IMG/VR virus record: IMGVR_UViG_2778261300_000005
Span: 1 to 17,913 of that record
Origin: a virus
Taxonomy: Duplodnaviria; Heunggongvirae; Uroviricota; Caudoviricetes
Strand: one strand, 5' to 3'
DNA: 17,913 nucleotides
Below the pieces are notes generated by a model. It worked only from the letters and a program-made list of their open reading frames with translations, was not told the DNA's origin and made no database searches. The position numbers were made by a program, and so were the translations under genes. How positions within the stretch are numbered: position 1 is the stretch's first letter; each line of letters opens with the position of its first letter. Of this stretch, positions 997-17,913 are shown piece by piece.

Positions 997-1089
997 AAAG
1001 CCCTCCGATGACGCTGTTTACTTCTACTACTTGAAAATTAATGCAATTTTCTTTCGTACATTTACTGCATACATATGCTGAATAAATCG

Positions 1090-1862: not shown

Positions 1863-2043
1863 GGTGGAAAGGATGAACGAGCCTCGTTGTATTGCTCAGT
1901 TATTGCGTAACGAAAGCCCCAGGGCGATTGACTTCACCATTACCCACGGTAAGGGGCGTAAGGGAATCATTATCCGCACCAAAAAACAGAGTCCGTTAAA
2001 AAAGGCTCTGACCTTTCTGAAAAGCCGGAGGGTATGGAAATGA
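1846..2043 (+). CDS. Small hypothetical early protein
   Basis: ATG at 1846 within ORF 1783..2043; overlaps the cox 3' end and the next gene's start. Position is analogous to the small ORFs that follow cox in P2-like phages. No motif recognised. Confidence 0.3.
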   Translation: MAVRLKVERMNEPRCIAQLLRNESPRAIDFTITHGKGRKGIIIRTKKQSPLKKALTFLKSRRVWK

Positions 2044-2540
2044 CAGTGATGACGCTCAATCTCGTTGAAAAACAACCAGCAACTATGCGCCGGATAATTG
2101 GTAAGCATCTTGCCGTCCCTCGCTGGCAGGAGACATGTGATTATTATAATCAGATGATGGAGCGCGAACGGCTAACGGTTTGCTTCCATGCACAGTTAAA
2201 ACAGCGTCATGCAACGATGCGTTTTGAAGAAATGAACGACGTCGAACGTGAACGGCTGGTTTGTGCAATTGATGAATTGCGTGGGGCATTCTCAAAACGC
2301 CGTCAGGTCGGTGCAAGTGAGTATGCATATATTAGCTTTTTAACTGTCAGTCAGCGCCGTACTTTATTTATGCACGCACGACTGACAGAAAAAGAATTTA
2401 ATCAGCCATACTGGCGAATTAATGAAGAGTCATGTTACTGGCGTGATGCTTTATTCCGTGCATTACGTGAATTATTCAGTCTGTTTGAATATGCACCGAC
2501 AATTCTGACGTCGGTAAAACCAGAGCAATATCTGCATTAA
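2034..2540 (+). CDS. Hypothetical early protein, 168 aa; possibly the P2 gpB-equivalent replication accessory protein
   Basis: ATG at 2034 preceded by GGAGGG. Size and position between cox and A resemble P2 gene B (about 166 aa as I recall), but I cannot verify sequence similarity. Confidence 0.55.
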   Translation: MEMTVMTLNLVEKQPATMRRIIGKHLAVPRWQETCDYYNQMMERERLTVCFHAQLKQRHATMRFEEMNDVERERLVCAIDELRGAFSKRRQVGASEYAYISFLTVSQRRTLFMHARLTEKEFNQPYWRINEESCYWRDALFRALRELFSLFEYAPTILTSVKPEQYLH

Positions 2541-2603
2541 GTAATTAACCAAAGTTTTTAACGCACTTAATCGTGCGGGGCTTCTTTTTGCCTGGAGAAA
2601 GTC

Positions 2604-2816
2604 ATGCATACAGTTTCTGAAAATCAGTGCGGTAAATACGCATTAATGCTGCAACAGGCCAGAACCGAAGCACAGGCCGATGCAGCAACGCGCTTTTCGT
2701 CTCATCTTGATGCCATGATTCGCCACATCACAAAGGCGGAGTTATCCCGCGTGGAGATAGTCGAGTTGCTCAGTCAGGAGTCTGCCAAATTCCATAATCT
2801 AGGACTCAATAAATAA
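2604..2816 (+). CDS. Small hypothetical early protein, 70 aa
   Basis: ATG at 2604 preceded by GGAGA. Co-oriented in the early operon. Confidence 0.5.
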
Positions 2817-2830
2817 CAGGGAAGTTGGAG

Positions 2831-3076
2831 ATGACAAATACAAAATGGTTCAGGAAACGCTTAACAGATTATCAACTTTCATTACTTAAAAAATTAGATG
2901 ACAAGACTCCACTACATCCTTCAAGCGATGTCTTCCGCTCCTGTCCTAGTCGTGTGGAAAAAGCATTTATAGCAATGGGGAAATGGGGGCTTGTGACTAA
3001 ATCAAGAGAAGGTTTCTGTATTACCGATAATGGCCGGGAAATGATTGATTCTGCGGAGAGGGCATATAGCGAATGA
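2831..3076 (+). CDS. Small hypothetical protein, about 81 aa
   Basis: The ORF-track start at 2825 is a TTG; ATG at 2831 with AGGGAAG upstream is the likelier start. AT-rich relative to flanking genes. Confidence 0.45.
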   Translation: MTNTKWFRKRLTDYQLSLLKKLDDKTPLHPSSDVFRSCPSRVEKAFIAMGKWGLVTKSREGFCITDNGREMIDSAERAYSE

Positions 3077-3363
3077 AAAATATATTGCTTAATAACTGGC
3101 TGAAGATTTCAGTCATGAAAAATGGTGATTTGTCGCTAGCTGATATTAAACGCGATAAAAACACTGGGGATATGGTGGAATCAACTATAGCCATTTATGC
3201 GGATAAATTAAATCTCCTGTCTGATGTGGTCAATTTACTTGTTAAACGCGCTGTATTTCATAAGCAAATTTCATCCGTGGATGAACTGACAAAATTAACG
3301 ACAGAAATCGCCAGCTATTGCGCTGATGAATTTAAGAAGCTGAACGACAAAAGGAGCTGGTAA
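3073..3363 (+). CDS. Small hypothetical protein, 96 aa, AT-rich
   Basis: ATG at 3073 with GGAGAGGG upstream; start overlaps the previous gene's stop. Noticeably AT-rich codon usage. Confidence 0.5.
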   Translation: MKNILLNNWLKISVMKNGDLSLADIKRDKNTGDMVESTIAIYADKLNLLSDVVNLLVKRAVFHKQISSVDELTKLTTEIASYCADEFKKLNDKRSW

Positions 3364-3587
3364 TGCCGGACAACGTAGATTTTATTCAGGAACAACAGGC
3401 TGAATTACTGGAGCGTCAGATTAACGCGGCAAGGGTAAAACATTGCGGTGCTTCTGCGCTGGTTTGCGAAGAGTGTGACGCGCCAATACCTGCTGCCCGT
3501 CGTGCGGCTTATCCGTCAGCCACGCGTTGTGTTTCCTGCCAGTCAGTCTTTGAAGCAAAAAACAAACATTACCGGAGAACGGCATGA
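3363..3587 (+). CDS. TraR/DksA-family C4 zinc-finger protein
   Basis: 74-aa protein with CEEC...(17 residues)...CVSC spacing typical of the TraR/DksA zinc finger. AAGGAG sits 6 nt upstream of the ATG. P2-like and lambdoid phages commonly encode a TraR homologue in the early region. Confidence 0.75.
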   Translation: MPDNVDFIQEQQAELLERQINAARVKHCGASALVCEECDAPIPAARRAAYPSATRCVSCQSVFEAKNKHYRRTA

Positions 3588-3859
3588 GTATTCGTATTGA
3601 AATTGGCGAACGTTATGTCGTTACCAGTGACAGCTTTCAGTTTATTCTCCACGAGAAAAAGAGAGCGGAAAGCGGTAAAAACACCGGTCAGGAATGGCTG
3701 GCGGTGGTTGGTTATTATCCGAAATTAAGCCAGCTCGTTTCCGGCCTGATGCATCACGATATTCTGACCGGAAGCGCAAAGTCTTTTGCTGATTTAAACG
3801 CGCAGGTTGAGCAACTCAGCAGGCGTTGTTCAGAGGCTTTTGGCTCATATGGCCGTTAA
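3584..3859 (+). CDS. Hypothetical protein, 91 aa, immediately upstream of and overlapping A
   Basis: ATG at 3584 preceded by GGAGA; ATGA-type overlap with the preceding gene; the 3' end overlaps the A start by 11 nt. Confidence 0.55.
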   Translation: MSIRIEIGERYVVTSDSFQFILHEKKRAESGKNTGQEWLAVVGYYPKLSQLVSGLMHHDILTGSAKSFADLNAQVEQLSRRCSEAFGSYGR

Positions 3860-6134
3860 AGCCTCCGGGCGTTTTGTCCCTCCGTCAGCATTTGCTGCAG
3901 GCACCGGTAAGGCGTTTACCGGTGCTTATGCATGGAACGCGCCACGCGAGGCCGTCGGGCGCGAAAGACCCCTTACACGTGACGAGATGCGTCAGGTGCA
4001 AGGTGTTTTATCCACGATTAACCGCCTGCCTTACTTTTTGCGCTCGCTGTTTACTTCACGCTATGACTACATCCGGCGCAATAAAAGCCCGGTGCACGGG
4101 TTTTATTTCCTCACATCCACTTTTCAGCGTCGTTTATGGCCGCGCATTGAGCGCGTTAATCAGCGTCATGAAATGAACACTGACGCGTCGTTGCTGTTTC
4201 TGGCAGAGCGTGACCATTATGCGCGCCTGCCGGGAATGAATGACAAGGAGCTGAAAAAGTTTGCCGCCCGTATCTCATCGCAGCTTTTCATGATGTATGA
4301 GGAACTCTGCGATGCATGGGTTGATGCACATGGCGAGAAAGAATCGCTGTTTACAGATGAGGCGCAGGCGCATCTGTATGGTCATGTTGCTGGCGCTGCA
4401 CGTGCTTTCAATATTTCCCCTCTCTACTGGAAAAAATACCGTAAAGGACAGATGACCACGAGGCAGGCATATTCTGCCATTGCCCGTCTGTTTAACGATG
4501 AGTGGTGGACTCATCAGCTTAAAGGCCAGCGTATGCGCTGGCATGAGGCGTTACTGATTGCTGTCGGGGAGGTCAATAAAGACCGTTCTCCTTATGCCAG
4601 TAAACATGCCATTCGTGATGTGCGTGCACGCCGCCAGGCAAATCTGGAATTTCTTAAATCGTGTGACCTCGAAAACAGGGAAACCGGCGAGCGCATCGAC
4701 CTTATCAGTAAGGTGATGGGCAGTATTTCTAATCCTGAAATTCGCCGGATGGAGCTGATGAACACCATCGCCGGTATTGAGCGTTACGCCGCCGCAGAGG
4801 GTGATGTGGGGATGTTTATCACTCTGACCGCGCCGTCAAAGTATCACCCGACACGTCAGGTCGGAAAAGGCGAAAGTAAAACCGTCCAGCTAAATCACGG
4901 CTGGAATGATGAGGCATTTAATCCAAAGGATGCGCAGCGTTATCTCTGCCGCATCTGGAGCCTGATGCGCACGGCATTCAAGGATAATGATTTACAGGTC
5001 TACGGTTTGCGAGTCGTCGAGCCACACCACGACGGAACGCCGCACTGGCATATGATGCTTTTTTGTAATCCACGCCAGCGTAACCAGATTATCGAAATCA
5101 TGCGTCGCTATGCGCTCAAAGAGGATGGTGACGAAAGAGGAGCCGCGCGAAACCGTTTTCAGGCAAAACACCTTAACCGGGGCGGTGCTGCGGGGTATAT
5201 CGCGAAATACATCTCAAAAAATATCGACGGCTATGCACTGGATGGGCAGCTCGATAACGATACCGGCAGACCGCTGAAAGATACTGCCGCGGCTGTTACC
5301 GCATGGGCGTCAACGTGGCGCATTCCGCAATTTAAAACGGCTGGCCTGCCGACAATGGGTGCTTACCGTGAACTACGCAAATTGCCTCGCGGCGTCAGCA
5401 TTGCTGATGAGTTTGACGAACGCGTCGAGGCTGCACGCGCCGCCGCAGACAGTGGTGATTTTGCGTTGTATATCAGCGCGCAGGGCGGGGCAAATGTCCC
5501 GCGCGATTGTCAGACTGTCAGGGTCGCCCGTAGCCCGTCGGATGACGTTAACGAGTACGAGGAAGAAGTCGAGAGAGTGGTCGGCATTTACGCGCCGCAT
5601 CTCGGCGCGCGTCATATTCATATCACCAGAACCATGGACTGGCGCATTGTGCCGAAAGTGCCGGTCGTTGAGCCTTTGACTTTAAAAAGCGGCATCGCCG
5701 CGCCTCGGAGTCCTGTCAATAACTGTGGAAAGATCACCGGCGGTAATACTTCGTTACCGGCTCCCACGCCTTCTGAGCACGCCGCAGCAGTGCTTAATCT
5801 GGTTGATGACGGTGTTATCGAATGGAATGACCCGGAGGTCGTGAGGGCGCTCAGGGGCGCATTAAAATACGGGCTGAGAACACCAAATCGTCAGCAGAGA
5901 AACGGAAGCCCGTTAAAACCACATGAAATTGCACCATCGGCCAGACTGACCCGGTCGGAAAGAATGCAAATTACCCGTATCCGCGTTGACCTTGCTCAGA
6001 ACGGTATCAGGCCGCAGCGATGGGAGCTTGAGGCGCTGGCGCGTGGCGCGACCGTAAATTATGACGGGAAAAAATTCACGTATCCGGTCGCTGATGAGTG
6101 GCCGGGATTCTCAACAGTAATGGCGCGGACATAA
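3849..6134 (+). CDS. A: Replication initiator protein A (rolling-circle, HUH endonuclease)
   Basis: ATG at 3849 gives 761 aa beginning MAVKASGRFVPPSAFAAGTGK, which matches P2 gpA as I recall it, including its length. Contains the HUH-type metal-binding motif EPHHDGTPHWHMMLF. The ORF-track start at 3807 is a TTG extension. Confidence 0.92.
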   Translation: MAVKASGRFVPPSAFAAGTGKAFTGAYAWNAPREAVGRERPLTRDEMRQVQGVLSTINRLPYFLRSLFTSRYDYIRRNKSPVHGFYFLTSTFQRRLWPRIERVNQRHEMNTDASLLFLAERDHYARLPGMNDKELKKFAARISSQLFMMYEELCDAWVDAHGEKESLFTDEAQAHLYGHVAGAARAFNISPLYWKKYRKGQMTTRQAYSAIARLFNDEWWTHQLKGQRMRWHEALLIAVGEVNKDRSPYASKHAIRDVRARRQANLEFLKSCDLENRETGERIDLISKVMGSISNPEIRRMELMNTIAGIERYAAAEGDVGMFITLTAPSKYHPTRQVGKGESKTVQLNHGWNDEAFNPKDAQRYLCRIWSLMRTAFKDNDLQVYGLRVVEPHHDGTPHWHMMLFCNPRQRNQIIEIMRRYALKEDGDERGAARNRFQAKHLNRGGAAGYIAKYISKNIDGYALDGQLDNDTGRPLKDTAAAVTAWASTWRIPQFKTAGLPTMGAYRELRKLPRGVSIADEFDERVEAARAAADSGDFALYISAQGGANVPRDCQTVRVARSPSDDVNEYEEEVERVVGIYAPHLGARHIHITRTMDWRIVPKVPVVEPLTLKSGIAAPRSPVNNCGKITGGNTSLPAPTPSEHAAAVLNLVDDGVIEWNDPEVVRALRGALKYGLRTPNRQQRNGSPLKPHEIAPSARLTRSERMQITRIRVDLAQNGIRPQRWELEALARGATVNYDGKKFTYPVADEWPGFSTVMART

Positions 6135-6436
6135 TGACAAAGATTCACAAAGTAAAGCTGCACGCAAGATATTTCAACCTTGTGCTGGAGGGAAAAGAAA
6201 CGCACAGAATTTAGGGGGATAGCCGTTATCATGTGTATGAAGCACTTGAAATGTATCTGCATCACTTGGGAGTGTGTCAACGGGGAATTTCCATCTATGT
6301 GATTTTTTGAGAGCAATGCAGTGAAGATAAAGATACTTATTATAAATCAATGTGATAGATGATGCCTCGCAAACGTAAATGATAGTTTTGAAGCTTCAGG
6401 GCTGATGTCGTTCATAAGACTATGTTTACGCTATCA

Positions 6437-6469
6437 TTTATGATAAAAATAATTAATTTTTATCATAAA
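6437..6469. promoter_or_regulatory. Near-perfect 33-bp palindrome (14-bp arms TTTATGATAAAAAT / ATTTTTATCATAAA) directly upstream of the ParB-like gene; candidate operator/promoter
   Basis: Read directly from the sequence; one central mismatch. It lies about 15-50 bp upstream of the ATG at 6485. Related ATGATA/TATCAT half-sites recur at about 6375-6384 and 6431-6444. Confidence 0.35.
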
Positions 6470-6484
6470 GATTCAACAGAGGAT

Positions 6485-7996
6485 ATGTTGATGAATCAAC
6501 TAAAATCAATGAATATCAATAAGTTACTTTTGGATGTTGATAACCCTCGTTTCCCGACGTCAGCAGAAAATCAGCGTGATGCTATTGCCAAGATGCTTGA
6601 CTTGCAGTACGACCGCATTTATCGCTTGGCTAAAGATATTGCTTCGAAAGGTTTAGATCCGTCTGAAAACATATTAGTTTATCCTAGTGAAGAGGAATCT
6701 GGCTTTTTCGTCGTTGCTGAAGGTAATCGTCGAGTTACAGCCCTTAAACTTTTACACTCTCCTAGACTTGCACCAACAGAAAAAGCACGGAAAGCTTTTG
6801 AAAAACTTAAGATTACTCAGCTTAAAGATATTAATGTTATAGATAACTGCGTTCTTTTTGACGATGATGAATATGAGCATTGGGTTAATTTAAAGCATAC
6901 TGGTCAAAATGCTGGAGTTGGAAGAGTTGAATGGACTGCAACAGAAAAAGCACGGCATCTGGCTAGGATGGGTAAGCAGTCATTTGGTAATCAAATACTT
7001 ACATTTATAGAGTTCAATACTGATTTATATAAAGAGATAATTGCTAAAAAAAGACTTTTAAAAATCACAAACATCACGCGTCTTTTTGGTGATTTAAAGG
7101 TGAGGGATTATTTTAATTTAAAAAGCATTAATGGAGTTCTATACTCATATCAGCCTTATGAACGTTTTTGTGCACAATTAAAAAATATTTTAGATGTAAT
7201 GATTGAAGAGGATGATAAAGGTAAGGCTTGTTTTACTGTTAATAGGATTCGTAGCCAAGATGACAGGGTTACATTTATTATTGAACAAAAAATAAAACCT
7301 TCAGAATCTCTTTTAGATAAGCCGTGGAGTTTACTGGAGCCTAAATCTTTTCTTACAGAGAAAAAAGATGATTCTATTGACAAAAATGATGCCTCTGTGA
7401 GTGTAAAGAAAGTAGGTCTTTCAGAAGGTGATGCCTTAAAGAATACAGGTATGGATAAACAGGAAGATGATTATTCTAGACATGTAGGCACAGAAGAGAG
7501 TAAATCTAAAGTTTCGGGTACGGAACAGAATAAAAGCAAGGGAAAAACTCCTCCTAAAGTAGATCGTAATGTGTTGGTGCCATCTTATGTGAAATTTAAT
7601 TTTAGAGGGCATAAAAAATGCTCTAGAATATTTAATGAGCTTAAGTCGCATCTGACATTTGATAATACCCCTAATGCTATCTCAATATTGTTGAGAATAT
7701 TTATAGATCTCTCTGTAAGCACTTTTGTTGAAGAAAACAAGTTACAATTTAAGGAACCGCATAGAACTCCAGGGCTTCATGATAAGGTTAAAATGTGTGC
7801 TAATTTCCTTCGGGAAAATAAAAAGATGACGGGGAGTCAATGTACGGCTGTAATAACTTTCTCGAGCCAAATAACTAAACATGATGGTTCATTGCAGCAG
7901 TATGTACATAACCCACACTTAATTCCCTCAAAAGAGGCTGTCAACACTGAGTGGGATAACTTTGAGTTGTTATTAAGCCTTATTTGGAGTGAGTGA
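6485..7996 (+). CDS. ParB/Srx-like N-terminal domain protein with low-complexity linker and uncharacterised C-terminal domain (cargo gene 1)
   Basis: ORF 6422..7996; likely start ATG 6485 or 6491, with AGAGGA at 6478-6483. N-terminus has ParB-like box motifs (INKLLLDVDNPRF and ILVYP...FVVAEGNRRVTALKLL, compare ParB GERRxRA). Strongly AT-rich, unlike the phage backbone. Confidence 0.7.
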   Translation: MLMNQLKSMNINKLLLDVDNPRFPTSAENQRDAIAKMLDLQYDRIYRLAKDIASKGLDPSENILVYPSEEESGFFVVAEGNRRVTALKLLHSPRLAPTEKARKAFEKLKITQLKDINVIDNCVLFDDDEYEHWVNLKHTGQNAGVGRVEWTATEKARHLARMGKQSFGNQILTFIEFNTDLYKEIIAKKRLLKITNITRLFGDLKVRDYFNLKSINGVLYSYQPYERFCAQLKNILDVMIEEDDKGKACFTVNRIRSQDDRVTFIIEQKIKPSESLLDKPWSLLEPKSFLTEKKDDSIDKNDASVSVKKVGLSEGDALKNTGMDKQEDDYSRHVGTEESKSKVSGTEQNKSKGKTPPKVDRNVLVPSYVKFNFRGHKKCSRIFNELKSHLTFDNTPNAISILLRIFIDLSVSTFVEENKLQFKEPHRTPGLHDKVKMCANFLRENKKMTGSQCTAVITFSSQITKHDGSLQQYVHNPHLIPSKEAVNTEWDNFELLLSLIWSE

Positions 7997-8009
7997 GATT
8001 TGTCTACAT

Positions 8010-8027
8010 CTGGACATGGATGTCCAG
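8010..8027. promoter_or_regulatory. Inverted repeat CTGGACAT-GG-ATGTCCAG between the two cargo genes; candidate operator
   Basis: Perfect 8-bp arms read directly from the sequence, about 40 bp upstream of the methyltransferase ATG. The 2-nt spacer argues for a protein-binding palindrome rather than a hairpin terminator. Confidence 0.3.
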
Positions 8028-8065
8028 AAACTGATAAACTACAAAATCAGGAATGAGAGGGATTT

Positions 8066-8950
8066 ATGAAATTTTATACTCCATTAAGATACCCCGGCGG
8101 GAAAGGTAAGTTATCTTACTTTTTAAAAGATGTTATTGAAAAAAACTCGTTGAATGATGGAGCATATGCAGAACCTTACGCTGGTGGTGCAGGGGTGGCT
8201 TTAGAATTATTATTGGAAGAGTATGTCCGTAAAATCTATATAAATGATGCAGATTTTGCTGTTTATTCTTTTTGGTCATCTGTTGTTAGTGATACTGATG
8301 AGCTTTGCCGACTTATTAGCCGAGCAAAGATAGATATGGATGAATGGTCTTTTCATCGCTATGTTATTTCGAATCCTTCTGAGTTTACTAAGCTTGAGGT
8401 TGGCTTTGCTGCGTTTTTCTTAAATAGAACAAATCGTTCAGGTATTCTCAAGGCGGGGGTTATAGGTGGGAAATCACAAAATGGAAAATGGAAAATGGAT
8501 GTTCGCTTTAACAGGGCGGATTTAATTTCAAGAATTGAGAAGATAGCAAATTATAATCAAAGAATAGTAGTAACTAATCTGGATGCTTTGGATTTTCTTG
8601 ATGCCTTGAATTTTATGGATAATATGGGAAAGGTGGATAAAAATAAAATTCTTTTGTATTTGGATCCTCCTTACTATATTAAAGGGCAAGGGCTTTACAG
8701 GAATTTTTATGAGCATGATGATCATGTATTGGTTATGAAGAAACTCACAGAAATTAATTTCCCAAATTGGCTTGTTTCTTATGATAATGCTAAGGAAATT
8801 AAAGATATTTATAATGAATTTCCGCAAGTTGAGTATTCATTGCAATATACAGCGCATCTCAAAAAATCTGGAGAGGAAGTGATGATTTTTTCTCCTGAAA
8901 TAATTATTCCTAATACCCTGAAAGGGGTCTCAATGCCAACTTGCGCCTGA
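8066..8950 (+). CDS. D12-class (Dam-like) N6-adenine DNA methyltransferase (cargo gene 2)
   Basis: 294 aa; ATG at 8066 preceded by GAGAGGG. N-terminal LRYPGGKGKL and AEPYAGGAGVALELL resemble the E. coli Dam AdoMet-binding region (LKWAGGK, VEPFVGAGSV). FFLNRTNRSG resembles Dam LYLNRYGYNG. The catalytic DPPY motif is present (LYLDPPYY). AT-rich. Confidence 0.85.
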   Translation: MKFYTPLRYPGGKGKLSYFLKDVIEKNSLNDGAYAEPYAGGAGVALELLLEEYVRKIYINDADFAVYSFWSSVVSDTDELCRLISRAKIDMDEWSFHRYVISNPSEFTKLEVGFAAFFLNRTNRSGILKAGVIGGKSQNGKWKMDVRFNRADLISRIEKIANYNQRIVVTNLDALDFLDALNFMDNMGKVDKNKILLYLDPPYYIKGQGLYRNFYEHDDHVLVMKKLTEINFPNWLVSYDNAKEIKDIYNEFPQVEYSLQYTAHLKKSGEEVMIFSPEIIIPNTLKGVSMPTCA

Positions 8951-9097
8951 TTTTACTTATTTTTTGTCAGTAAGTAATTAGTTTGGTGCATTTATTTGCA
9001 TTCATTTTTAAATGCCAGTTCTGGTATCTGACATCAGTGCTGGCGCATTCTGACCATTACTGCTGCACTGCATTTAAAGCCCTGCATGAAGCGGGCG

Positions 9098-9116
9098 GGC
9101 GAGGCGGGGAAAGCAC
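9098..9116. other. cos site (19-nt cohesive end, P2-type)
   Basis: GGCGAGGCGGGGAAAGCAC matches the P2 cohesive-end sequence as I recall it. It lies between the cargo module and the leftward Q gene, as in P2. Confidence 0.6.
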
Positions 9117-9258
9117 TGCGCGCTGGCGGTGGTGCTGATTTTATTTTTTCAGCGTCTGAGCGCGTCGTGATGGCGTTTAGATTGTGCGCCGGGGTGTTGG
9201 TGTGTCTGCGGGATGTTTTGTGCGGTGGTGAGCGTGTGAGGGCGTGATGACGGGGTGT

Positions 9259-9280
9259 AAAAAAGCCGCCCGCAGGCGGC
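9259..9280 (-). terminator. Rho-independent terminator downstream of Q (minus strand)
   Basis: Minus strand reads GCCGCC-TGCG-GGCGGC followed by TTTTTT, immediately after the Q stop codon at 9286-9288. Confidence 0.5.
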
Positions 9281-9285
9281 GATGT

Positions 9286-10320
9286 TCAGCCGTTGTCAGT
9301 GTCCAGTGAGTAGTTTTTAAAGCGGATGACCTCCTGACCGAGCCAGCCGTTTATCTCGCGGATCCTGTCCTGTAACGGGATAAGCTCATTGCGGACAAAG
9401 ACCTTTGCCACTTTCTCAATATCACCCAGCGACCCGACGTTCTCCGGCTTGCCGCCCATCAACTGAAAGGGGATGCGGTGCGCGTCCAGCAGGTCTGCGG
9501 CACTGGCTTTTTTGATATTAAAAAAATCGTCCTTCGTCGCCACTTCACTGAGCGGGATAATTTTAATGCCGTCGGCTTTCCCTTGTGGGGCATAGAGAAA
9601 CAGATTTTTAAAGTTGTTGCGGCCTTTCGACTTCACCATGTTTTCGCGAAGCATTTCGATATCGTTGCGATCCTGCACGGCATCGGTGACGTACATGATG
9701 TATCCGGCATGTGCGCCGTTTTCGTAATACTTGCGGCGGAACAGCGTGGCCGATTCATTCAGCCAGGCAGAGTTAAGGGCGCTGAGATATTCCGGCAGGC
9801 CGTACAGCTCCTGATTAATATCCGGCTCCAGCAGGTGAAACACGGAGCCGGGTGCGAAGGCTGTCGGCTCGTTGAAGGACGGCACCCACCAGTAAACATC
9901 CTCTTCCACGCCACGGCGGGTATATTTTGCCGGTGAGGTTTCCAGTCTGATGACCTTACCGGTGGTGCTGTAACGCTTTTCCAGAAACGCATTACCGAAC
10001 ACCAGAAAATCCAGCACAAAGCGGCTGAAATCCTGCTGGGAAAGCCACGGATGCGGGATAAATGTCGAGGCCAGAATATTGCGTTTGACGTAAATCGGGG
10101 AGCTGTGATGCACGGCAGCACGCAGGCTTTTTGCCAGACCGGTAAAGCTGACCGGTGGCTCATACCATCTGCCGTTACTGATGCACTCAACGTAATCCAG
10201 AATGTCACGGCGGTCGAGTACCGGCACCGGCTCGCCAAAGGTGAATGCTTCCATTTTCGGGGCGCTGGCGGTGATTGTTTTTGCCGCAGGTCGCGGTGTT
10301 TTCCCTTTTTTCTTGCTCAT
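9286..10320 (-). CDS. Q: Portal protein (capsid portal vertex), P2 gpQ
   Basis: 344 aa, the same length as P2 Q as I recall; leftward orientation adjacent to cos; start overlaps the P stop by 1 nt. Confidence 0.9.
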   Translation of the reverse strand: MSKKKGKTPRPAAKTITASAPKMEAFTFGEPVPVLDRRDILDYVECISNGRWYEPPVSFTGLAKSLRAAVHHSSPIYVKRNILASTFIPHPWLSQQDFSRFVLDFLVFGNAFLEKRYSTTGKVIRLETSPAKYTRRGVEEDVYWWVPSFNEPTAFAPGSVFHLLEPDINQELYGLPEYLSALNSAWLNESATLFRRKYYENGAHAGYIMYVTDAVQDRNDIEMLRENMVKSKGRNNFKNLFLYAPQGKADGIKIIPLSEVATKDDFFNIKKASAADLLDAHRIPFQLMGGKPENVGSLGDIEKVAKVFVRNELIPLQDRIREINGWLGQEVIRFKNYSLDTDNG

Positions 10321-12092
10321 CAGTAAAACTCCAGAATGGTGGATGTCAGCGGGGGGCTGATACCGGCGGTGAGTGGCTCATTTAACAGGGCGTGCATGGT
10401 CGCCCAGGCGAGGTCGGCGTGGCTGGCTTCCTCGCTGCGGCTGGCCTCATAGGTGGCACTGCGTCCGCTGCTGGTCATGGTCTTGCGGATAGCCATAAAC
10501 GAGCTGGTGATGTCGGTGGCGCTGACGTCATATTCCAGACAGCCACGGCGGATAACGTCTTTTGCCTTGAGCACCATTGCGGTTTTCATTTCCGGCGTGT
10601 AGCGGATATCGCGCGCGGCGGGATAGAACGAGCGCACGAGCTGGAACACGCCGACACCGAGGCCGGTGGCATCAATCCCGATGTATTCAACGTTATATTT
10701 TTCGGTGAGTTTGCGGATGGATTCCGCCTGGGTGGCAAAGTCCATGCCTTTCCACTGGTGACGCTCAAGTATTCTGAATTTGCCACCGGCCACCACCGGC
10801 GGTGCCAGCACCACGCATCCGGCGCTGTCGCCACGGTGTGACGGGTCGTAACCAATCCATACCGGGCGGGAGCCGAACGGATTGGCGGCAAACGGCGCAT
10901 AGTCTTCCCATTCTTCCAGCGTGTCGACCATGCAGCGTTGCAGCTCCTCGAACGGGAACACCGACGCCTTGTCGTCAACAAATTCACACATGAACAGGTT
11001 TTTAAAATCGTCGGCGCTGTTTTCACGTTTGAGCTGCTCAATGTCGAACAGCGTGCAGCCACCTTTCAGGGCGTCCTCAATGGTGACAATCTGCCGCCAC
11101 TGGCCGTCCGCACAGAGAAGCCCACCGGCAAGGGCGTTATGACTGACGTCGATTTCCACGCGTTCGGCGGCGCTGGCGCGTCCCCGGTTGAACAGTTCAC
11201 CTGACCAGAACGGGTAGGCGTCGTGCGCCAGCGTGGACGGGGTGGAGAAATAGGTCGAACGCAGGTGACTCTGTGAGGCCATACCTGATGCCACCTTACG
11301 CAGTACCTGAAAATTCGGGATCCAGAAAATCTCGTCGACGTACAGGTCGCCGTTATGGCTCTGTGCGGTGTTGGAGTTGGTGCCGAGAAAAATCAGTTTT
11401 GCGCCGTTATTGCCCAGGACAATCGGGTCACCGGTCAGGTCAACGTCAACCAGACGGGCAAAGGCGATGATGTATTCGCGGAACACATACGCCTGCGTTT
11501 TACTGGCCGACAGAAAAATCTGGTTATGACCGGTTTTCAGGGCGCGCAGCAGCGCCTCGCGGGAAAAATAAAACGTCGCGCCAATCTGACGGGATTTCAG
11601 GATATCGCGGATGCGGTGCTCAAGCCCGGCGCGATACCAGTGCAACTGATATTCGAAAGACTGCTCAAAGAAAATCTGCTCCAGCTTTTCGATGGCCTCG
11701 TCACTGAAAAAATTCTTTTTCGGTTTGCGCCGCCCGCCTTTGTTGCGGTTAGCGACGTTCGGATTAAGGTCTGCCTCGTTGCCGGTCTGGCTGTAGCGGT
11801 TGACCCGTGCCAGTCGTTCAATCTGGCGTCCGAGCAGGTCAATTTCCTTGAAGTCACCGCCGGTTTTCTGCGGTTTGATGATGAGCTGGGTCAGCCGCGC
11901 TTCCAGACTCATTTCGACACGGCTGATGGGGGCAACGCTGTCCCAGCCGTCGCGCTGTTTCCAGCTCTGCACCGTCGGGCGTTTCATCTGCAACATGGCG
12001 GCAATCTGCGGCACGGAAAACCCCTGCCAGTACAGCAGCGCCGCCTGACGACGCGGGTCGTGTAAAAGAGTGGTGTCTGTGGTGATGGTCAT
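10320..12092 (-). CDS. P: Terminase large (ATPase) subunit, P2 gpP
   Basis: ATG at 12092-12090 gives 590 aa starting MTITTDTTLLHD, matching the P2 P length as I recall. The ORF-track start at 12122 is an upstream extension. Confidence 0.9.
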   Translation of the reverse strand: MTITTDTTLLHDPRRQAALLYWQGFSVPQIAAMLQMKRPTVQSWKQRDGWDSVAPISRVEMSLEARLTQLIIKPQKTGGDFKEIDLLGRQIERLARVNRYSQTGNEADLNPNVANRNKGGRRKPKKNFFSDEAIEKLEQIFFEQSFEYQLHWYRAGLEHRIRDILKSRQIGATFYFSREALLRALKTGHNQIFLSASKTQAYVFREYIIAFARLVDVDLTGDPIVLGNNGAKLIFLGTNSNTAQSHNGDLYVDEIFWIPNFQVLRKVASGMASQSHLRSTYFSTPSTLAHDAYPFWSGELFNRGRASAAERVEIDVSHNALAGGLLCADGQWRQIVTIEDALKGGCTLFDIEQLKRENSADDFKNLFMCEFVDDKASVFPFEELQRCMVDTLEEWEDYAPFAANPFGSRPVWIGYDPSHRGDSAGCVVLAPPVVAGGKFRILERHQWKGMDFATQAESIRKLTEKYNVEYIGIDATGLGVGVFQLVRSFYPAARDIRYTPEMKTAMVLKAKDVIRRGCLEYDVSATDITSSFMAIRKTMTSSGRSATYEASRSEEASHADLAWATMHALLNEPLTAGISPPLTSTILEFY

Positions 12093-12265
12093 GAATACCT
12101 CGCCGTGATGAATACACGGCAAGGCTACTGAGTCGCGCCCCGCGATTCGCTAAGGTGCTGTTGTGTCAGTGATAAGCCATCCGGGACTGATGGCGGAGGA
12201 TGCGCATCGTCGGGAAACTGATGCCGACATGTGACTCCTCTAATCACTATTCAGGACTCCTGACA
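12093..12265. promoter_or_regulatory. Divergent late promoter region (P2 Pp/Po equivalents, Ogr-dependent)
   Basis: Non-coding gap between the divergent P and O genes, where P2 has its Ogr-activated late promoters. I did not confidently locate the TGT-N12-ACA activator dyad by eye. Confidence 0.4.
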
Positions 12266-13120
12266 ATGGCAAAAAAAGTCTCAAAATTCTTTCGTATCGG
12301 CGTTGAGGGTGACACCTGTGACGGGCGTGTCATCAGTGCGCAGGATATTCAGGAAATGGCCGAAACCTTTGACCCGCGTGTCTATGGTTGCCGTATTAAC
12401 CTGGAACATCTGCGCGGCATCCTGCCTGACGGTATTTTTAAACGTTATGGTGATGTGGCTGAACTGAAGGCCGAAAAGATTGACGATGATTCGGCGCTGA
12501 AAGGCAAATGGGCGCTGTTTGCGAAAATCACCCCGACCGATGACCTTATCGCGATGAACAAGGCCGCGCAGAAGGTCTACACCTCAATGGAGATTCAGCC
12601 GAACTTTGCCAACACCGGCAAATGTTATCTGGTGGGGCTGGCCGTCACCGATGACCCGGCAAGCCTCGGCACGGAATATCTGGAATTCTGCCGCACGGCA
12701 AAACACAACCCCCTGAACCGCTTCAAATTAAGCCCTGAAAACCTGATTTCAGTGGCAACGCCCGTTGAGCTGGAATTTGAAGACCTGCCTGAAACCGTGT
12801 TCACCGCCCTGACCGAAAAGGTGAAATCCATTTTTGGCCGCAAACAGGCCAGCGATGACGCCCGTCTGAATGACGTGCATGAAGCGGTGACCGCTGTTGC
12901 TGAACATGTGCAGGAAAAACTGAGCGCCACTGAGCAGCGCCTCGCTGAGATGGAAAACGCCTTTTCCGCACTTAAGCAGGAGGTGACTGACAGGGCGGAT
13001 GAAACCAGCCAGGCATTCACCCGCCTGAAAAACAGTCTCGACCACACCGAAAGTCTGACCCAGCAGCGCCGCAGCAAGGCCACCGGCGGTGGCGGAGACG
13101 CCCTGATGACGAACTGCTGA
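12266..13120 (+). CDS. O: Capsid scaffolding protein, P2 gpO
   Basis: ATG at 12266 gives 284 aa (MAKKVSKFFRIGVEGD...), matching P2 O length; coiled-coil-like C-terminus; directly upstream of the major capsid gene. Confidence 0.85.
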   Translation: MAKKVSKFFRIGVEGDTCDGRVISAQDIQEMAETFDPRVYGCRINLEHLRGILPDGIFKRYGDVAELKAEKIDDDSALKGKWALFAKITPTDDLIAMNKAAQKVYTSMEIQPNFANTGKCYLVGLAVTDDPASLGTEYLEFCRTAKHNPLNRFKLSPENLISVATPVELEFEDLPETVFTALTEKVKSIFGRKQASDDARLNDVHEAVTAVAEHVQEKLSATEQRLAEMENAFSALKQEVTDRADETSQAFTRLKNSLDHTESLTQQRRSKATGGGGDALMTNC

Positions 13121-13178
13121 CCGGCGTCAGTCAGTCCGGGAAAACCTTCACGATTAACCCTTAATTTCAGGAACAAAT

Positions 13179-14252
13179 ATGCGCCAGGAAACCCGTTTAA
13201 AATTTAATGCCTACCTGTCCCGTGTTGCCGAACTGAACGGCATCGACGCCGGTGATGTGTCGAAAAAATTCACCGTTGAACCGTCGGTCACCCAGACCCT
13301 GATGAACACCATGCAGGAGTCCTCTGACTTTCTGACCCGCATCAACATTGTGCCGGTCAGCGAAATGAAAGGGGAAAAAATTGGTATCGGTGTCACCGGC
13401 CCCATTGCCAGCACCACCGACACCGCCGGTGGCACCGAGCGTCAGCCGAAGGACTTCTCGAAGCTGGCGTCCAACAAGTACGAATGCGACCAGGTTAACT
13501 TCGATTTTTATATCCGCTACAAAACGCTGGACCTGTGGGCGCGTTATCAGGATTTCCAGCTCCGTATCCGTAATGCCATTATCAAACGCCAGTCCCTTGA
13601 TTTCATCATGGCCGGTTTTAACGGCGTGAAGCGTGCCGAAACCTCTGACCGCAGCAGCAATCCGATGCTGCAGGATGTGGCGGTCGGCTGGCTGCAGAAA
13701 TACCGCAATGAAGCTCCGGCGCGCGTGATGAACAAGGTCACTGACGAGGAAGGTCGCACCACCTCTGAGGTTATCCGCGTGGGCAAGGGCGGTGATTATG
13801 CCAGCCTTGACGCACTGGTGATGGATGCGACCAATAACCTGATTGAACCGTGGTATCAGGAAGACCCTGACCTTGTGGTGATTGTGGGACGTCAGCTACT
13901 GGCGGACAAGTATTTCCCCATCGTCAACAAGGAGCAGGACAACAGCGAAATGCTGGCCGCTGACGTCATCATCAGCCAGAAACGCATCGGTAACCTGCCG
14001 GCGGTACGCGTCCCGTACTTCCCGGCGGATGCGATGCTCATCACGAAGCTGGAAAACCTGTCCATCTACTACATGGATGACAGCCATCGCCGCGTGATTG
14101 AGGAAAACCCGAAACTCGACCGCGTGGAGAACTACGAGTCAATGAACATTGATTACGTGGTGGAAGACTACGCCGCCGGCTGTCTGGTGGAAAAAATTAA
14201 GGTCGGTGATTTCTCCACACCGGCCAGGGCAACCGCAGAGCCGGGAGCGTAA
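13179..14252 (+). CDS. N: Major capsid protein, P2 gpN
   Basis: 357 aa, matching P2 N length; follows the scaffold gene. Confidence 0.9.
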   Translation: MRQETRLKFNAYLSRVAELNGIDAGDVSKKFTVEPSVTQTLMNTMQESSDFLTRINIVPVSEMKGEKIGIGVTGPIASTTDTAGGTERQPKDFSKLASNKYECDQVNFDFYIRYKTLDLWARYQDFQLRIRNAIIKRQSLDFIMAGFNGVKRAETSDRSSNPMLQDVAVGWLQKYRNEAPARVMNKVTDEEGRTTSEVIRVGKGGDYASLDALVMDATNNLIEPWYQEDPDLVVIVGRQLLADKYFPIVNKEQDNSEMLAADVIISQKRIGNLPAVRVPYFPADAMLITKLENLSIYYMDDSHRRVIEENPKLDRVENYESMNIDYVVEDYAAGCLVEKIKVGDFSTPARATAEPGA

Positions 14253-14255
14253 CCG

Positions 14256-14999
14256 ATGACGAGTCCCGCACAGCGCCACATGATGCGGGTCTCGGCAGCG
14301 ATGACCGCGCAGCGGGAAGCCGCCCCGCTGCGACATGCAACTGTCTATGAGCAGATGCTGGTTAAGCTCGCCGCAGACCAGCGCACACTGAAAGCGATTT
14401 ATTCAAAAGAGCTGAAGGCCGCGAAAAAACGCGAACTGCTGCCGTTCTGGTTGCCGTGGGTGAACGGCGTGCTGGAGCAGGGCAAAGGCGCACAGGATGA
14501 CATTCTGATGACGGTCATGCTGTGGCGTCTGGATACCGGCGATATTGCCGGTGCGCTGGAGATTGCCCGTTATGCCCTGAAGTACGGTCTGACCATGCCG
14601 GGTAAACACCGCCGCACCCCGCCGTACATGTTCACCGAGGAGGTCGCGCTTGCGGCCATGCGTGCCCACGCTGCCGGTGAGTCTGTGGATACCCGCCTGC
14701 TGACGGAGACCCTTGAACTGACTGCCGCTGCTGACATGCCTGATGAAGTGCGCGCAAAGCTGCACAAAATCACCGGTCTGTTTCTGCGTGACGGTGGTGA
14801 TGCCGCCGGTGCGCTGGCGCACCTGCAACGTGCGACACAGCTCGACTGTCAGGCAGGCGTCAAAAAAGAGATTGAACGACTGGAGCGGGAGCTGAAACCG
14901 AAGCCGGAGCCGCAGCCCAAAGCGGCCACCCGTACCCCGCGTAAGACCCGGAGCGTGACACCGGCAAAACGTGGACGCCCGAAAAAGAAAGCCAGTTAA
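14256..14999 (+). CDS. M: Terminase small (endonuclease) subunit, P2 gpM
   Basis: 247 aa, matching P2 M length; basic K/R-rich C-terminal tail; follows N. Confidence 0.85.
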   Translation: MTSPAQRHMMRVSAAMTAQREAAPLRHATVYEQMLVKLAADQRTLKAIYSKELKAAKKRELLPFWLPWVNGVLEQGKGAQDDILMTVMLWRLDTGDIAGALEIARYALKYGLTMPGKHRRTPPYMFTEEVALAAMRAHAAGESVDTRLLTETLELTAAADMPDEVRAKLHKITGLFLRDGGDAAGALAHLQRATQLDCQAGVKKEIERLERELKPKPEPQPKAATRTPRKTRSVTPAKRGRPKKKAS

Positions 15000-15098
15000 C
15001 AACCGAATGCGCCCCGCGCCAGGGCGGCACGCCGGTCAGTGTGGGTGAATCACCTGACACTGTTCCGGCGTCCACCGCCCGACTTTTCTGAGGTAGTC

Positions 15099-15608
15099 AT
15101 GATGACGCTGATTATTCCGCGAAAGGAGGCTCCCGTGTCCGGTGAGGGTACGGTGGTCATCCCGCAACCGGCAGGCGACGAGCCGGTGATTAAAAACACG
15201 TTCTTTTTTCCCGATATCGACCCGAAGCGCGTCCGGGAACGTATGCGCCTTGAGCAGACCGTCGCCCCCGCCCGTCTGCGTGAGGCCATCAAGTCAGGCA
15301 TGGCGGAGACGAATGCGGAGCTGTACGAGTACCGCGAACAGAAAATTGCCGCCGGTTTTACGCGTCTGGCGGACGTTCCGGCGGACGACATCGACGGTGA
15401 AAGCATCAAAGTTTTTTACTACGAGCGCGCCGTGTGTGCGATGGCGACCGCGTCGCTTTATGAGCGTTACCGCGGCGTGGATGCCAGTGCGAAAGGCGAC
15501 AAGAAGGCTGACAGCATTGACAGCACCATTGATGAGCTGTGGCGGGATATGCGCTGGGCGGTGGCGCGTATCCAGGACAAGCCGCGCTGCATCGTGAGTC
15601 AAATCTGA
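15099..15608 (+). CDS. L: Head completion/stabilisation protein, P2 gpL
   Basis: ATG at 15099 gives 169 aa (MMTLIIPRKEAP...), matching P2 L length. The ORF-track start at 15039 is an extension. Confidence 0.85.
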   Translation: MMTLIIPRKEAPVSGEGTVVIPQPAGDEPVIKNTFFFPDIDPKRVRERMRLEQTVAPARLREAIKSGMAETNAELYEYREQKIAAGFTRLADVPADDIDGESIKVFYYERAVCAMATASLYERYRGVDASAKGDKKADSIDSTIDELWRDMRWAVARIQDKPRCIVSQI

Positions 15609-15811
15609 TGAAGACCTTTGCGCTACAGGGCGACACGCTCGACGCCATTTGTGTCCGGTATTACGGGCGCACTGAGGGCGTGGTCGAGGCCGTGCTCGCC
15701 GCAAATCCGGGACTGGCTGAACTGGGTGCGGTGCTGCCACACGGCACCGCCGTCGAACTGCCCGACGTTCAGACCGCGCCCGTGGCTGAAACTGTCAATC
15801 TGTGGGAGTAA
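15608..15811 (+). CDS. X: Tail protein X-like (P2 gpX)
   Basis: ATG at 15608 overlaps the L stop (TGATG). 67 aa (MKTFALQGDTLDAICVRYYG...), matching P2 X length. Confidence 0.8.
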   Translation: MKTFALQGDTLDAICVRYYGRTEGVVEAVLAANPGLAELGAVLPHGTAVELPDVQTAPVAETVNLWE

Positions 15812-15814
15812 CGC

Positions 15815-16096
15815 ATGACAGCAGAAGAAAAAAGCGTCCTGTCGCTTTTCATGATTGGGGTGCTGATTGTTGTCGGCAAGGTGCTTGCCGGTGGTGAACC
15901 CATCACCCCGCGTCTGTTTATCGGGCGCATGTTGCTCGGTGGTTTTGTCTCGATGGTTGCCGGTGTTGTTCTGGTGCAGTTTCCTGACCTGTCACTGCCT
16001 GCGGTGTGCGGCATCGGCTCCATGCTGGGTATCGCCGGTTATCAGGTGATTGAGATTGCCATTCAGCGCCGCTTTAAGGGCAGGGGGAAACCGTAA
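15815..16096 (+). CDS. Y: Holin, P2 gpY
   Basis: 93 aa with hydrophobic membrane segments (LSLFMIGVLIVVGKVLAGG...); immediately upstream of the endolysin; TAATG overlap with the K start. Confidence 0.75.
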   Translation: MTAEEKSVLSLFMIGVLIVVGKVLAGGEPITPRLFIGRMLLGGFVSMVAGVVLVQFPDLSLPAVCGIGSMLGIAGYQVIEIAIQRRFKGRGKP

Positions 16097-17019
16097 TGCC
16101 GGTAATTAACACGCATCAGAATATCGCCGCCTTTCTCGACATGCTGGCAGTGTCCGAAGGGACGGCGAATCATCCGCTGACGAAAAACCGTGGCTATGAC
16201 GTGATAGTCACCGGACTGGACGGGAAGCCGGAAATCTTCACCGACTACAGTGACCACCCGTTCGCGCATGGCCGACCGGCGAAGGTGTTTAACCGTCGCG
16301 GTGAAAAATCCACGGCCTCCGGTCGCTATCAGCAGCTTTACCTGTTCTGGCCGCATTACCGCAAACAGCTTGCCCTGCCGGATTTCAGTCCGTTGTCACA
16401 GGACAGGCTCGCCATTCAGTTGATCCGCGAACGCGGTGCACTGGATGACATCCGGGCGGGACGCATTGAGCGCGCCATTTCACGCTGTCGCAATATCTGG
16501 GCGTCCCTGCCGGGTGCCGGTTACGGTCAGCGTGAGCATTCACTGGAAAAACTGGTCACCGTCTGGCGTACCGGCTTAAACGGAGTAAACACCATGAAGA
16601 AATTATCCCTTTCACTGATGCTGAACGTGTCGCTGGCGCTGATGCTGGCACTGTCCCTGATTTACCCGCAGAGCGTGGCCGTCAGTTTTGTCGCTGCCTG
16701 GGCGATTCTGGCGACGGTTATCTGTGTGGTTGCCGGTGGTGTCGGCGTGTATGCCACTGAGTATGTGCTGGAACGCTACGGGCGGGAGCTGCCGCCGGAA
16801 TCGCTGGCCGTGAAGATTGTCACGGCGCTGTTTTTGCAGCCGGTGCCGTGGCGCAGACGGGCGGCGGCTCTGGTGGTGATGGTGGCGACGTTTATCGCGC
16901 TGGTCGCCGCCGGGTGGATTTTTACCGCGCTGATTTATCTCGTGGCGTCGGTGTTCTTCCGGCTGATACGTAAAGCCTGTCGTCAGCGTCTTGAGGGGCG
17001 GGAATTATGTCAAAGCTGA
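16096..17019 (+). CDS. K: Endolysin (P2 gpK-like) whose reading frame continues without a stop into the LysA-like membrane protein (307-aa continuous ORF)
   Basis: N-terminal 165-166 residues (MPVINTHQNIAAFLDMLAVSEGT...) are the P2 K-type endolysin. The frame stays open through ATG 16594 into a hydrophobic 141-aa LysA-like region and ends at TGA 17017-17019. Confidence 0.75.
   Translation: MPVINTHQNIAAFLDMLAVSEGTANHPLTKNRGYDVIVTGLDGKPEIFTDYSDHPFAHGRPAKVFNRRGEKSTASGRYQQLYLFWPHYRKQLALPDFSPLSQDRLAIQLIRERGALDDIRAGRIERAISRCRNIWASLPGAGYGQREHSLEKLVTVWRTGLNGVNTMKKLSLSLMLNVSLALMLALSLIYPQSVAVSFVAAWAILATVICVVAGGVGVYATEYVLERYGRELPPESLAVKIVTALFLQPVPWRRRAAALVVMVATFIALVAAGWIFTALIYLVASVFFRLIRKACRQRLEGRELCQS
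16594..17019 (+). CDS. lysA: LysA-like membrane protein (antiholin/lysis-timing), possibly expressed from the internal ATG
   Basis: Internal ATG at 16594 gives 141 aa (MKKLSLSLMLNVSLALMLAL...) with multiple predicted transmembrane segments; same length as P2 LysA as I recall. Confidence 0.6.
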   Translation: MKKLSLSLMLNVSLALMLALSLIYPQSVAVSFVAAWAILATVICVVAGGVGVYATEYVLERYGRELPPESLAVKIVTALFLQPVPWRRRAAALVVMVATFIALVAAGWIFTALIYLVASVFFRLIRKACRQRLEGRELCQS

Positions 17020-17432
17020 TGATTGTGCTGGTCGTGTTGTTATCGCTGGCGGTGGCGGGGCTGTTTCTGGCAAAGCATGAAAACGCCAGCCTGCGCGCCT
17101 CGCTGGACAGGGCGAACAACGTCGCCAGTGAACAGCAGACGACCATCACCATGCTGAAAAACCAGCTTCATGTTGCCCTTACCAGGGCAGACAAAAACGA
17201 GATGGCGCAGGTGGCACTGCGTCAGGAACTGGAGAACGCCGCGAAGCGTGAAGCACAGCGCGAGAAAACCATCACGAGGTTACTTAATGAGAACGAAGAT
17301 TTTCGCCGCTGGTACGGTGCTGACCTGCCTGATGCTGTGCGCCGGTTGCACCAGCGCCCCGCCTGCACCGACGCCAGTGATTGTCCCCAACGCATGCCCG
17401 AAAGTGAGCCTTTGCCCGATGCCGGGCAGTGA
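17007..17432 (+). CDS. lysB: LysB, Rz-like inner-membrane spanin
   Basis: 141 aa; N-terminal transmembrane segment (LMIVLVVLLSLAVAGLFLA) followed by charged coiled-coil-like periplasmic region; start overlaps the lysA stop. Confidence 0.75.
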   Translation: MSKLMIVLVVLLSLAVAGLFLAKHENASLRASLDRANNVASEQQTTITMLKNQLHVALTRADKNEMAQVALRQELENAAKREAQREKTITRLLNENEDFRRWYGADLPDAVRRLHQRPACTDASDCPQRMPESEPLPDAGQ

Positions 17433-17613
17433 CCCGCAGACGAACGGCGATTTAAGTGCCGATAAAGTGTCAGGCTTTAAGCGCGTCATAGACGAGCAGG
17501 ACTGGACAATCACTAAGGTGACACATTTTCTTAATAATAGCGGCTTCACGACGTCCTTAGATCTTGAGGTCAGGCTTTCTGATGTGGAGTACGAAACAGA
17601 AGATGATGAGTGA
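17287..17613 (+). CDS. lysC: LysC, Rz1-like outer-membrane lipoprotein spanin, embedded in the +1 frame of lysB and extending past it
   Basis: ATG at 17287 inside lysB; signal peptide with lipobox (LMLCAGC); proline-rich mature region (APPAPTPVIVP). The ORF-track start at 17170 is an extension. Confidence 0.65.
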   Translation: MRTKIFAAGTVLTCLMLCAGCTSAPPAPTPVIVPNACPKVSLCPMPGSDPQTNGDLSADKVSGFKRVIDEQDWTITKVTHFLNNSGFTTSLDLEVRLSDVEYETEDDE

Positions 17614-17694
17614 TGTTTTTATTTTATCTGTTTGTTTTATAAGGATAAATTAACTAAAATAACACCATCAACAAAACCGGAAGAGGTGCTCGCG

Positions 17695-17913
17695 ATGTTT
17701 CATTGTCCTTTATGCCAGCATGCCGCACATGCGCGTACAAGCCGCTATATCACTGACACGACAAAAGAGCGTTATCACCAGTGCCAGAACGTGAATTGCA
17801 GCGCCACGTTCATCACCTATGAGTCGGTACAGAGATACATCGTGAAGCCGGGAGAAGTCCACGCCGTAAGGCCGCACCCGTTGCCGTCAGGGCAGCAAAT
17901 TATGTGGATGTAA
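17695..17913 (+). CDS. ogr: Late gene transcriptional activator Ogr (C4 zinc finger)
   Basis: ATG at 17695 gives 72 aa (MFHCPLCQHAAHARTSRYITDTTKERYHQCQNVNCSATFITYESVQRYIVKPGEVHAVRPHPLPSGQQIMWM), which matches P2 Ogr as I recall it; CxxC...CxxxxC zinc finger. Confidence 0.9.
   Translation: MFHCPLCQHAAHARTSRYITDTTKERYHQCQNVNCSATFITYESVQRYIVKPGEVHAVRPHPLPSGQQIMWM

Follow-up and report, generated by a model that had tools for sequence, protein, structure and literature searches.

Defective P2-like prophages with conserved defence genes have already been described (PMC13586616). PD-Lambda-5, a validated defence system that came out of a functional selection, gives broad protection and has been likened to an RM+Abi system compacted for prophage carriage. 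It is native to the P2 hotspot that separates the replication endonuclease gene from the portal gene, where several other systems from the same screen are also located (PMC9519451). A far smaller relic is PR-X of E. coli K-12, which spans only 629 bp and comprises a 219-nt fragment of the tail gene D (yegZ, a gpD C-terminal pseudogene) and ogrK. Tail-less elements of another kind are the capsid-forming PICIs (cf-PICIs; e.g., EcCIEDL933), which have PICI-type int/AlpA/primase genes and adaptors and connectors, carry no holin or tail genes, and form lineages conserved across species; the SatelliteFinder model for these elements forbids tail and holin profiles, treats adaptor and connector genes as core, and includes a PICI-type left arm (PMC10085698).

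Here we compare with these systems a stretch of viral DNA of 17,913 bp (hereafter the window), whose ends coincide exactly with two stop codons, that of an integrase gene on the minus strand and that of ogr (Table 1). Against the P2 genome (AF063097), blastn aligned window 1859-6215 with the early region (orf78, B, A) at ~95% identity, window 9098-17464 with P2 1-8379 (cos to lysC) at 97.6%, and window 17464-17913 with P2 23805-24254 (the end of D, the spacer and ogr) at 97.3%. Searches with every P2 protein using tblastn recovered full-length homologues of Q, P, O, N, M, L, X, Y, LysA, LysB, Ogr, orf78, B, orf80-83 and A, with the late proteins being 95-100% identical to their P2 counterparts; Int, C and Cox are also full length, at 53%, 48% and 35% identity, respectively. 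The gene order from int to ogr is collinear with P2, a P2-type cos with a 19-nt cohesive end is present and direct repeats of the att core lie beside int and ogr, but of the contractile-tail module from R to D only a remnant of D is found. Every substantial ORF of the window could be assigned either to a P2 homologue or to PD-Lambda-5. Judged by its sequence, the window is a defective member of the P2-family (Peduovirus-like) prophages of E. coli, in which int, C, cox, B, A, cos, Q, P, O, N, M, L, X, Y, lysB and ogr are intact.

Table 1. Features of the window, in window coordinates.
Feature	Position	Strand	Remarks
Integrase	1-996	-	53% identical to P2 Int
Immunity and early region	1093-6134	mixed	C repressor, cox, orf78, B, orf80-83 homologues and A; all full length
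C repressor	1093-1401	-	
Replication endonuclease A	3849-6134	+	
PD-Lambda-5 cargo in the A-to-cos hotspot	6422-8950	+	
PD-Lambda-5 A	6422-7996	+	called as 501 aa from an internal start; no Pfam domain
PD-Lambda-5 B	8066-8950	+	D12-class adenine methyltransferase (Pfam)
cos	9098-9116	+	19-nt P2 cohesive-end sequence GGCGAGGCGGGGAAAGCAC, exact match
Packaging and head genes with X and Y	9286-16096	Q, P on -; O, N, M, L, X, Y on +	98.5-100% identical to P2 proteins, full length
pP/pO Ogr-binding site	12156-12186		identical to P2
X	15608-15811	+	
Y	15815-16096	+	
K-lysA fusion ORF	16096-17019	+	307 aa
lysB (i-spanin), intact	17007-17432	+	96% identical to P2 LysB
lysC 5' fragment (o-spanin lipoprotein)	17287-17463	+	codons 1-59 of 96
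Deletion junction	17464		one common A joins P2 8379 to P2 23805
Tail gene D 3' remnant	17464-17613	+	codons 339-387 and stop, in frame with the lysC fragment
D-ogr intergenic region, native	17614-17694	+	81 bp, 31% G+C, holds the ogr promoter
ogr (late-gene activator)	17695-17913	+	72 aa, 100% identical to P2 Ogr

Several local departures from P2 lie in the left half of the window. The immunity/integration region (window 1-1862) is distant from that of P2, pointing to a heteroimmune P2 relative with a different att site. At the position of P2 orf81 (window 2825-3363) there is an 81/83-aa ORF without a Pfam match followed by a 96-aa DUF5405 protein, an arrangement also present in several other lysogens. 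Downstream of gene A (window 6131-6199) the homologue of P2 orf91 is reduced to its first 23 codons, a remnant that marks where the cargo hotspot begins on the left. PADLOC identified the two genes that separate A from cos as PD-Lambda-5 A (E = 6e-168) and PD-Lambda-5 B (E = 8e-122); they occupy the hotspot in which P2 carries tin and old, neither of which had a tblastn match in the window.

On the right side, P2 R, S, orf30, V, W, J, I, H, G, fun(Z), FI, FII, E, T and U likewise had no tblastn match in the window, and P2 D was matched only at residues 339-387. A first-pass annotation, made from the sequence alone, had claimed that the tail module is absent between the lysis genes and ogr, and these searches bear it out. 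It had also proposed alignment with P2 as the means of locating the junction; this alignment places the breakpoint at 17464, inside both lysC and D. Base-by-base comparison shows that P2 lysC is followed up to 8379 and P2 D is followed from 23805, with the same base of the window serving as the first base of both lysC codon 60 and D codon 339. The ORF at 17287-17613 is an in-frame chimera, LysC(1-59)::gpD(339-387), of 108 aa, and its stop codon (17611-17613) is that of D. The earlier statement that lysC ends at 17613 has to be corrected: by both blastn and the base-by-base comparison lysC breaks off at 17464, and 17613 belongs to the D stop codon. The start of ogr was correctly given as 17695. 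The AT-rich 81-bp spacer upstream of it was rightly described in size and composition (31% G+C against 50% for the window), but was taken for a lysC-ogr spacer, when it is the native D-ogr region, also 81 bp long in P2, with the -35 (17632-17634) and -10 (17655-17661) elements of the ogr promoter both conserved with the P2 annotation. For annotation purposes, the “lysC” of this prophage is a LysC'-'gpD chimera and completeness tools should flag the element as defective.

Measured against P2, 15,426 bp are missing; measured against the prophage of E. coli KL53 (see below), 13,146 bp. The junction shows a microhomology of 1 nt (A) against P2 or 2 nt against KL53, with no scar. For the size of the deletion (13-15 kb) and the extent of the microhomology (1-2 nt) these are approximate values, as the nearest intact relatives are ~2% divergent and the true parent is absent from the collections. 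Recombination by the tail-fibre invertase was considered as the cause of the deletion and rejected: the end-points lie in lysC and D, far from the invertible segment, and have only 1-2 nt in common.

We then examined the reality and distribution of the junction. Exact-protein look-ups with a 93-aa version of the chimera and with the K-LysA fusion both matched the source contigs, whereas the chimera as 108 aa or 147 aa found no match because gene callers had used other starts. The look-up with the fusion protein returned two sources, GCA_002518655.1 and the Logan assembly of SRR29736265, both of which are 100% identical to the window across the whole overlap, junction included (11.8-16 kb around the junction). 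In both, pflB follows ogr, and in the NCBI contig (NOMQ01000008.1, 145 kb, uninterrupted through the element) this is followed by focA, ycaO, ycaP, serC and aroA. The case for a physical junction rests on this agreement between two assemblies from different pipelines and different runs, although both samples may derive from a single strain or clone. Because the source records are drafts assembled from short reads, there is room for the idea that a chimeric or collapsed contig conceals a real prophage with tail genes, the scenario that the first-pass annotation had itself named as its refutation. It finds no support here, as two independent assemblies agree on the junction and its surroundings, the 145-kb contig passes straight across the element, and a related genome shows a different clean deletion at the same locus (see below). 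Moreover, with only 1-2 nt common to the two sides of the breakpoint there is no repeat on which an assembler could collapse. Hence, we regard an assembly artefact as scarcely credible.

None of 5,426 complete E. coli genomes spans a 181-nt junction probe, although one or the other half of it is matched in over 2,000 of them, and the junction was not found in phage records, GTDB species representatives, IMG/VR or JGI metagenomes (the last three, searched with a 30-nt junction, do not contain the source strain). Its absence from these collections suggests a rare, lineage-specific event. A two-piece match in ON470611.1 (phage vB_EcoM-473R3) was rejected as a second instance of the junction: this is a partial genome in which a duplicated lysB/lysC stretch is followed by normal R and S genes. 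In that record, the duplication of lysB/lysC (8536-9385) and a split terminase gene are probably assembly problems.

The chimeric fusion is in frame and free of any insertion, and P2/P4 systems are engineered for gene delivery (PMC9942202, PMC9594776); one might thus think of a laboratory construct, a P2 lysogen deliberately deprived of its tails. That origin is vanishingly improbable. An in-frame outcome is expected by chance in one case out of three, the end-points lie mid-gene in lysC and D rather than at designed boundaries, and there is no scar, marker or vector sequence in the window. Further, the element is not P2 itself, having a different int, C and cox and residing at a natural pflB|pflA site together with PD-Lambda-5, and it is known from several surveillance-type assemblies or runs along with a sister genome that bears another deletion.

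In both assemblies the element sits at the usual pflB|pflA attachment site. On the contigs of the source lineage the att core is a 13-nt direct repeat, ACCAATAACTGAC, found 90-102 nt to the left of the window start and 114-126 nt to the right of its end, an assignment we infer because no exact repeat is longer and because of where the native pflA start lies. The ogr terminator and attR are just outside the end of the window. The element measures ~18.13 kb between the att cores, which is 54% of P2. As the att core overlaps the start of pflA, integration moved the native ATG to the attR side, and the PflA of the lysogen has a phage-supplied 20-residue N-terminus, MSNLTNCNTTENTATAGATK, which replaces Met1 and is followed by SVIGRIH..., giving a protein of 265 aa. 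This 265-aa form was present in 10 of 10 lysogens with this integrase allele among the matches listed. The allele itself occurs in 14,860 collection blocks; among the matches listed it lies beside pflA in 10 of 10, with varied cargo after A.

An intact close relative at the same site is found in E. coli KL53 (NZ_CP030919 690461-721292). From pflA, its prophage reads int, C, cox, B, A, a 501-aa protein, a DNA adenine methylase, Q, P, O, N, M and L; then X, Y, K, lysA, lysB, lysC, R, S, V, W, J, I, H and G; and finally an invertible fibre segment with its recombinase, FI, FII, E, T, U, D and ogrK, up to pflB. The KL53 prophage and P2 share the gene order of the window and are 95-98% identical to it in nucleotide sequence from int to lysB and from the D remnant to ogr, and the KL53 prophage also has the attachment site and the cargo pair (501-aa protein and Dam-type methylase) in common with it. 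The window is in effect the KL53 prophage minus 13.1 kb: set against KL53 and P2, it lacks everything from lysC codon 60 to D codon 338 (13.1 kb and 15.4 kb, respectively) and has in addition a 14-bp deletion that fuses K to lysA. A P2-like prophage at the same pflB site in ESDR8 (NZ_CM169472.1) has an IS21-family element in its tail-fibre assembly gene (locus positions 18391-21202), which represents a different route to tail inactivation.

The 14-bp deletion, at 16564/16565, lies between GGCGTACCG direct repeats. It shifts the frame after residue 159 of the 165 residues of K, abolishing the K stop codon and fusing K to LysA in a single ORF. The fusion matched no family in our Pfam scan; its precomputed annotation gives PF28015 (LysA). 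The same 14-bp deletion is present in one complete genome, in the tail-bearing ESDR8 prophage, where K is marked as a pseudogene by PGAP, and is either a recurrent slippage or an allele moved by recombination; ESDR8 was rejected as a parent of the window, being ~2.4% divergent and carrying different cargo. At the junction, LysC has lost its C-terminal 37 residues. The spanin pair would be compromised by this truncation of the o-spanin, and the endolysin probably so; the truncation of LysC and the attachment of K to the membrane protein LysA would together probably impair lysis. The first-pass annotation had credited the element with lysogeny, replication, cos, packaging, head, lysis and late-activator genes, a list that stands for all but lysis, which it overstated given the truncated lysC and the fusion of K to lysA.

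The large deletion may also have altered late transcription. Both the attenuator in lysC and the terminator after S are deleted, and we found no convincing terminator-like site between lysB and ogr (a single consensus match near the start of lysB is within chance expectation). Hence, transcription from pO should run through the chimera into ogr, and would stop at the ogr terminator just beyond the window. This proposed read-through resembles the situation in wild-type P2, where, according to the P2 annotation, the F operon reads into ogr.

An exact look-up with the gpA protein returned a further genome, GCA_012400945.1 (L018, AASKHI010000009.1; locus 6153-17569). In this sister, window position 11216, inside the terminase gene P, is joined to window position 17711, in codon 6 of ogr, with a 2-nt microhomology. 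The whole stretch between these two points is missing, whereas int to A, PD-Lambda-5 and the portal gene are kept. Window 1-11216 is shared with a single SNP (at 3070). Compared with the window lineage, the left host flank has 2 SNPs across 6,152 nt and the right host flank none across 4,717 nt, as against the 0.3-0.7% divergence of the KL53 host flanks. These near-identical flanks indicate that the window lineage and GCA_012400945.1 are one clone whose prophage is being whittled down. The deletion in the sister may be a later step on the tail-less form or may have arisen separately from the intact ancestor.

Taken together, these observations make it very probable that the window represents an ordinary P2-type E. 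coli prophage which lost its tail block in one illegitimate deletion and is decaying in place with its defence genes kept. The first-pass annotation had offered a deletion derivative, i.e., a defective prophage, as one of its two readings, and several features favour this one: the flanks of the deletion are 97-98% identical to P2 and to the intact prophages that occupy the same site, the break is inside two ORFs and leaves a useless 150-nt stub of D, the lysis cassette has a second lesion, and the sister genome has a further deletion. Mechanistically, a single non-homologous deletion would have removed the 3' end of lysC, R to U with the accessory loci, and the first 338 codons of D, leaving an in-frame LysC'-'D chimera upstream of the untouched D-ogr region and ogr. 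This presumably recent deletion would have been tolerated or even favoured because it disarmed a lethal prophage, and would then have been inherited vertically, followed by further erosion during which PD-Lambda-5 and the int-to-A region were retained. Having no tails, the element would form no infectious virions. If derepressed, it might still leave the chromosome as a ~18.1-kb circle, replicate and perhaps package its DNA into heads, which would be a dead end unless another P2-type phage provides tails.

That last proviso is the basis of the other reading offered by the first-pass annotation: a head-only element dependent on a helper, that is, an incipient capsid-forming satellite that builds its own P2-type heads, borrows the tails of P2-like phages and so spreads PD-Lambda-5. 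In its favour, int, cox, both att cores, A, B, cos, the terminase (P, M), the portal, scaffold, capsid and head-completion (L) genes, the holin gene and ogr are intact. Moreover, P2-type packaging acts on closed circles that are cut at cos, and mutants without tails still produce capsids filled with DNA (PMC2231350); interactions between prophages can mobilise defective ones (PMC2669165); and the cf-PICIs show that stealing tails alone is viable (PMC10085698). We nonetheless consider such an element very improbable, as nothing in the data points to it, and slightly more improbable still its most specific form, in which the derepressed 18.1-kb circle fills P2-type heads that are completed by the tails of a heteroimmune P2-like phage, making it a newborn P2 satellite that mobilises PD-Lambda-5. 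If true, it would offer a snapshot of tail-stealing satellites arising from phages via one deletion.

The junction inside two ORFs and the useless stub of D are unlike an evolved architecture, and the element is known from one clone at one site with near-identical host flanks and was found in none of the other collections searched. Its lysis genes are damaged, and in the sister genome the genes for heads and lysis have disappeared altogether, which gives no hint that selection maintains them. R and S, the tail-completion genes, are thought to act at head-tail joining, and both are deleted. In addition, at 54% of the length of P2, stable filling of a P2-size head by the excised genome is doubtful; together with the loss of R and S, this makes productive head-tail joining doubtful.

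The element also departs from the definition of a cf-PICI. The window and a cf-PICI such as EcCIEDL933 are superficially alike in having an integrase, replication genes, their own capsid and terminase genes and no tail module within ~18 kb. However, the window consists of P2 sequence throughout and encodes the holin Y (PF04550) and the tail protein X (PF05489), both of which are forbidden in a cf-PICI. In place of a PICI-type left module it has P2-type C/Cox, gpB and the rolling-circle endonuclease gpA, and its junction is confined to one clone and one site, in contrast to a lineage conserved across strains and species. As for head-tail adaptor and connector genes, the P2 head-completion gene L is the one left that might join the heads to foreign tails. 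Going by its assigned ORFs, the window also differs from a P4-like satellite, typified by Psu-Delta-Sid, an alpha primase and epsilon and by the absence of structural genes, in having the full set of head and packaging genes.

We therefore return to the decaying prophage as the preferred reading. The deletion is a specific and previously uncatalogued one, but it is an instance of a well-known kind, and on its own has little importance, adding one more defective prophage. Its modest value lies in providing a cleanly dated, stepwise erosion of a prophage within one E. coli clone, comprising the tail deletion, a lysis frameshift, and the loss of head and lysis genes in the sister, with PD-Lambda-5 and the int-to-A region untouched throughout. 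This pattern agrees with the published proposal that defence genes gain stability by residing in P2 elements that are defective. In the defective P2-like prophages described earlier, core functions are lost or pseudogenised with the hotspot defence genes intact, and GCA_012400945.1 also fits this description; however, the core gene most often found there as a pseudogene is the primase (PMC13586616), whereas in the window replication is intact and it is the structural genes that were lost.

A parallel on the right-hand side is PR-X. Like the window, it has a 3' fragment of D, the D-ogr spacer and ogr at the right attachment end, and in both cases the deletion has an end-point inside D, the fragment left in the window being 150 nt as against the 219 nt of PR-X. 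The two differ in extent and location: PR-X retains nothing to the left of its D fragment and lies at a different chromosomal site, whereas in the window the D fragment, ogr and attR are accompanied by ~17 kb more of prophage, with the lysogeny, replication, cargo, packaging, head and most of the lysis genes kept. The window is thus an earlier stage of PR-X-like decay.
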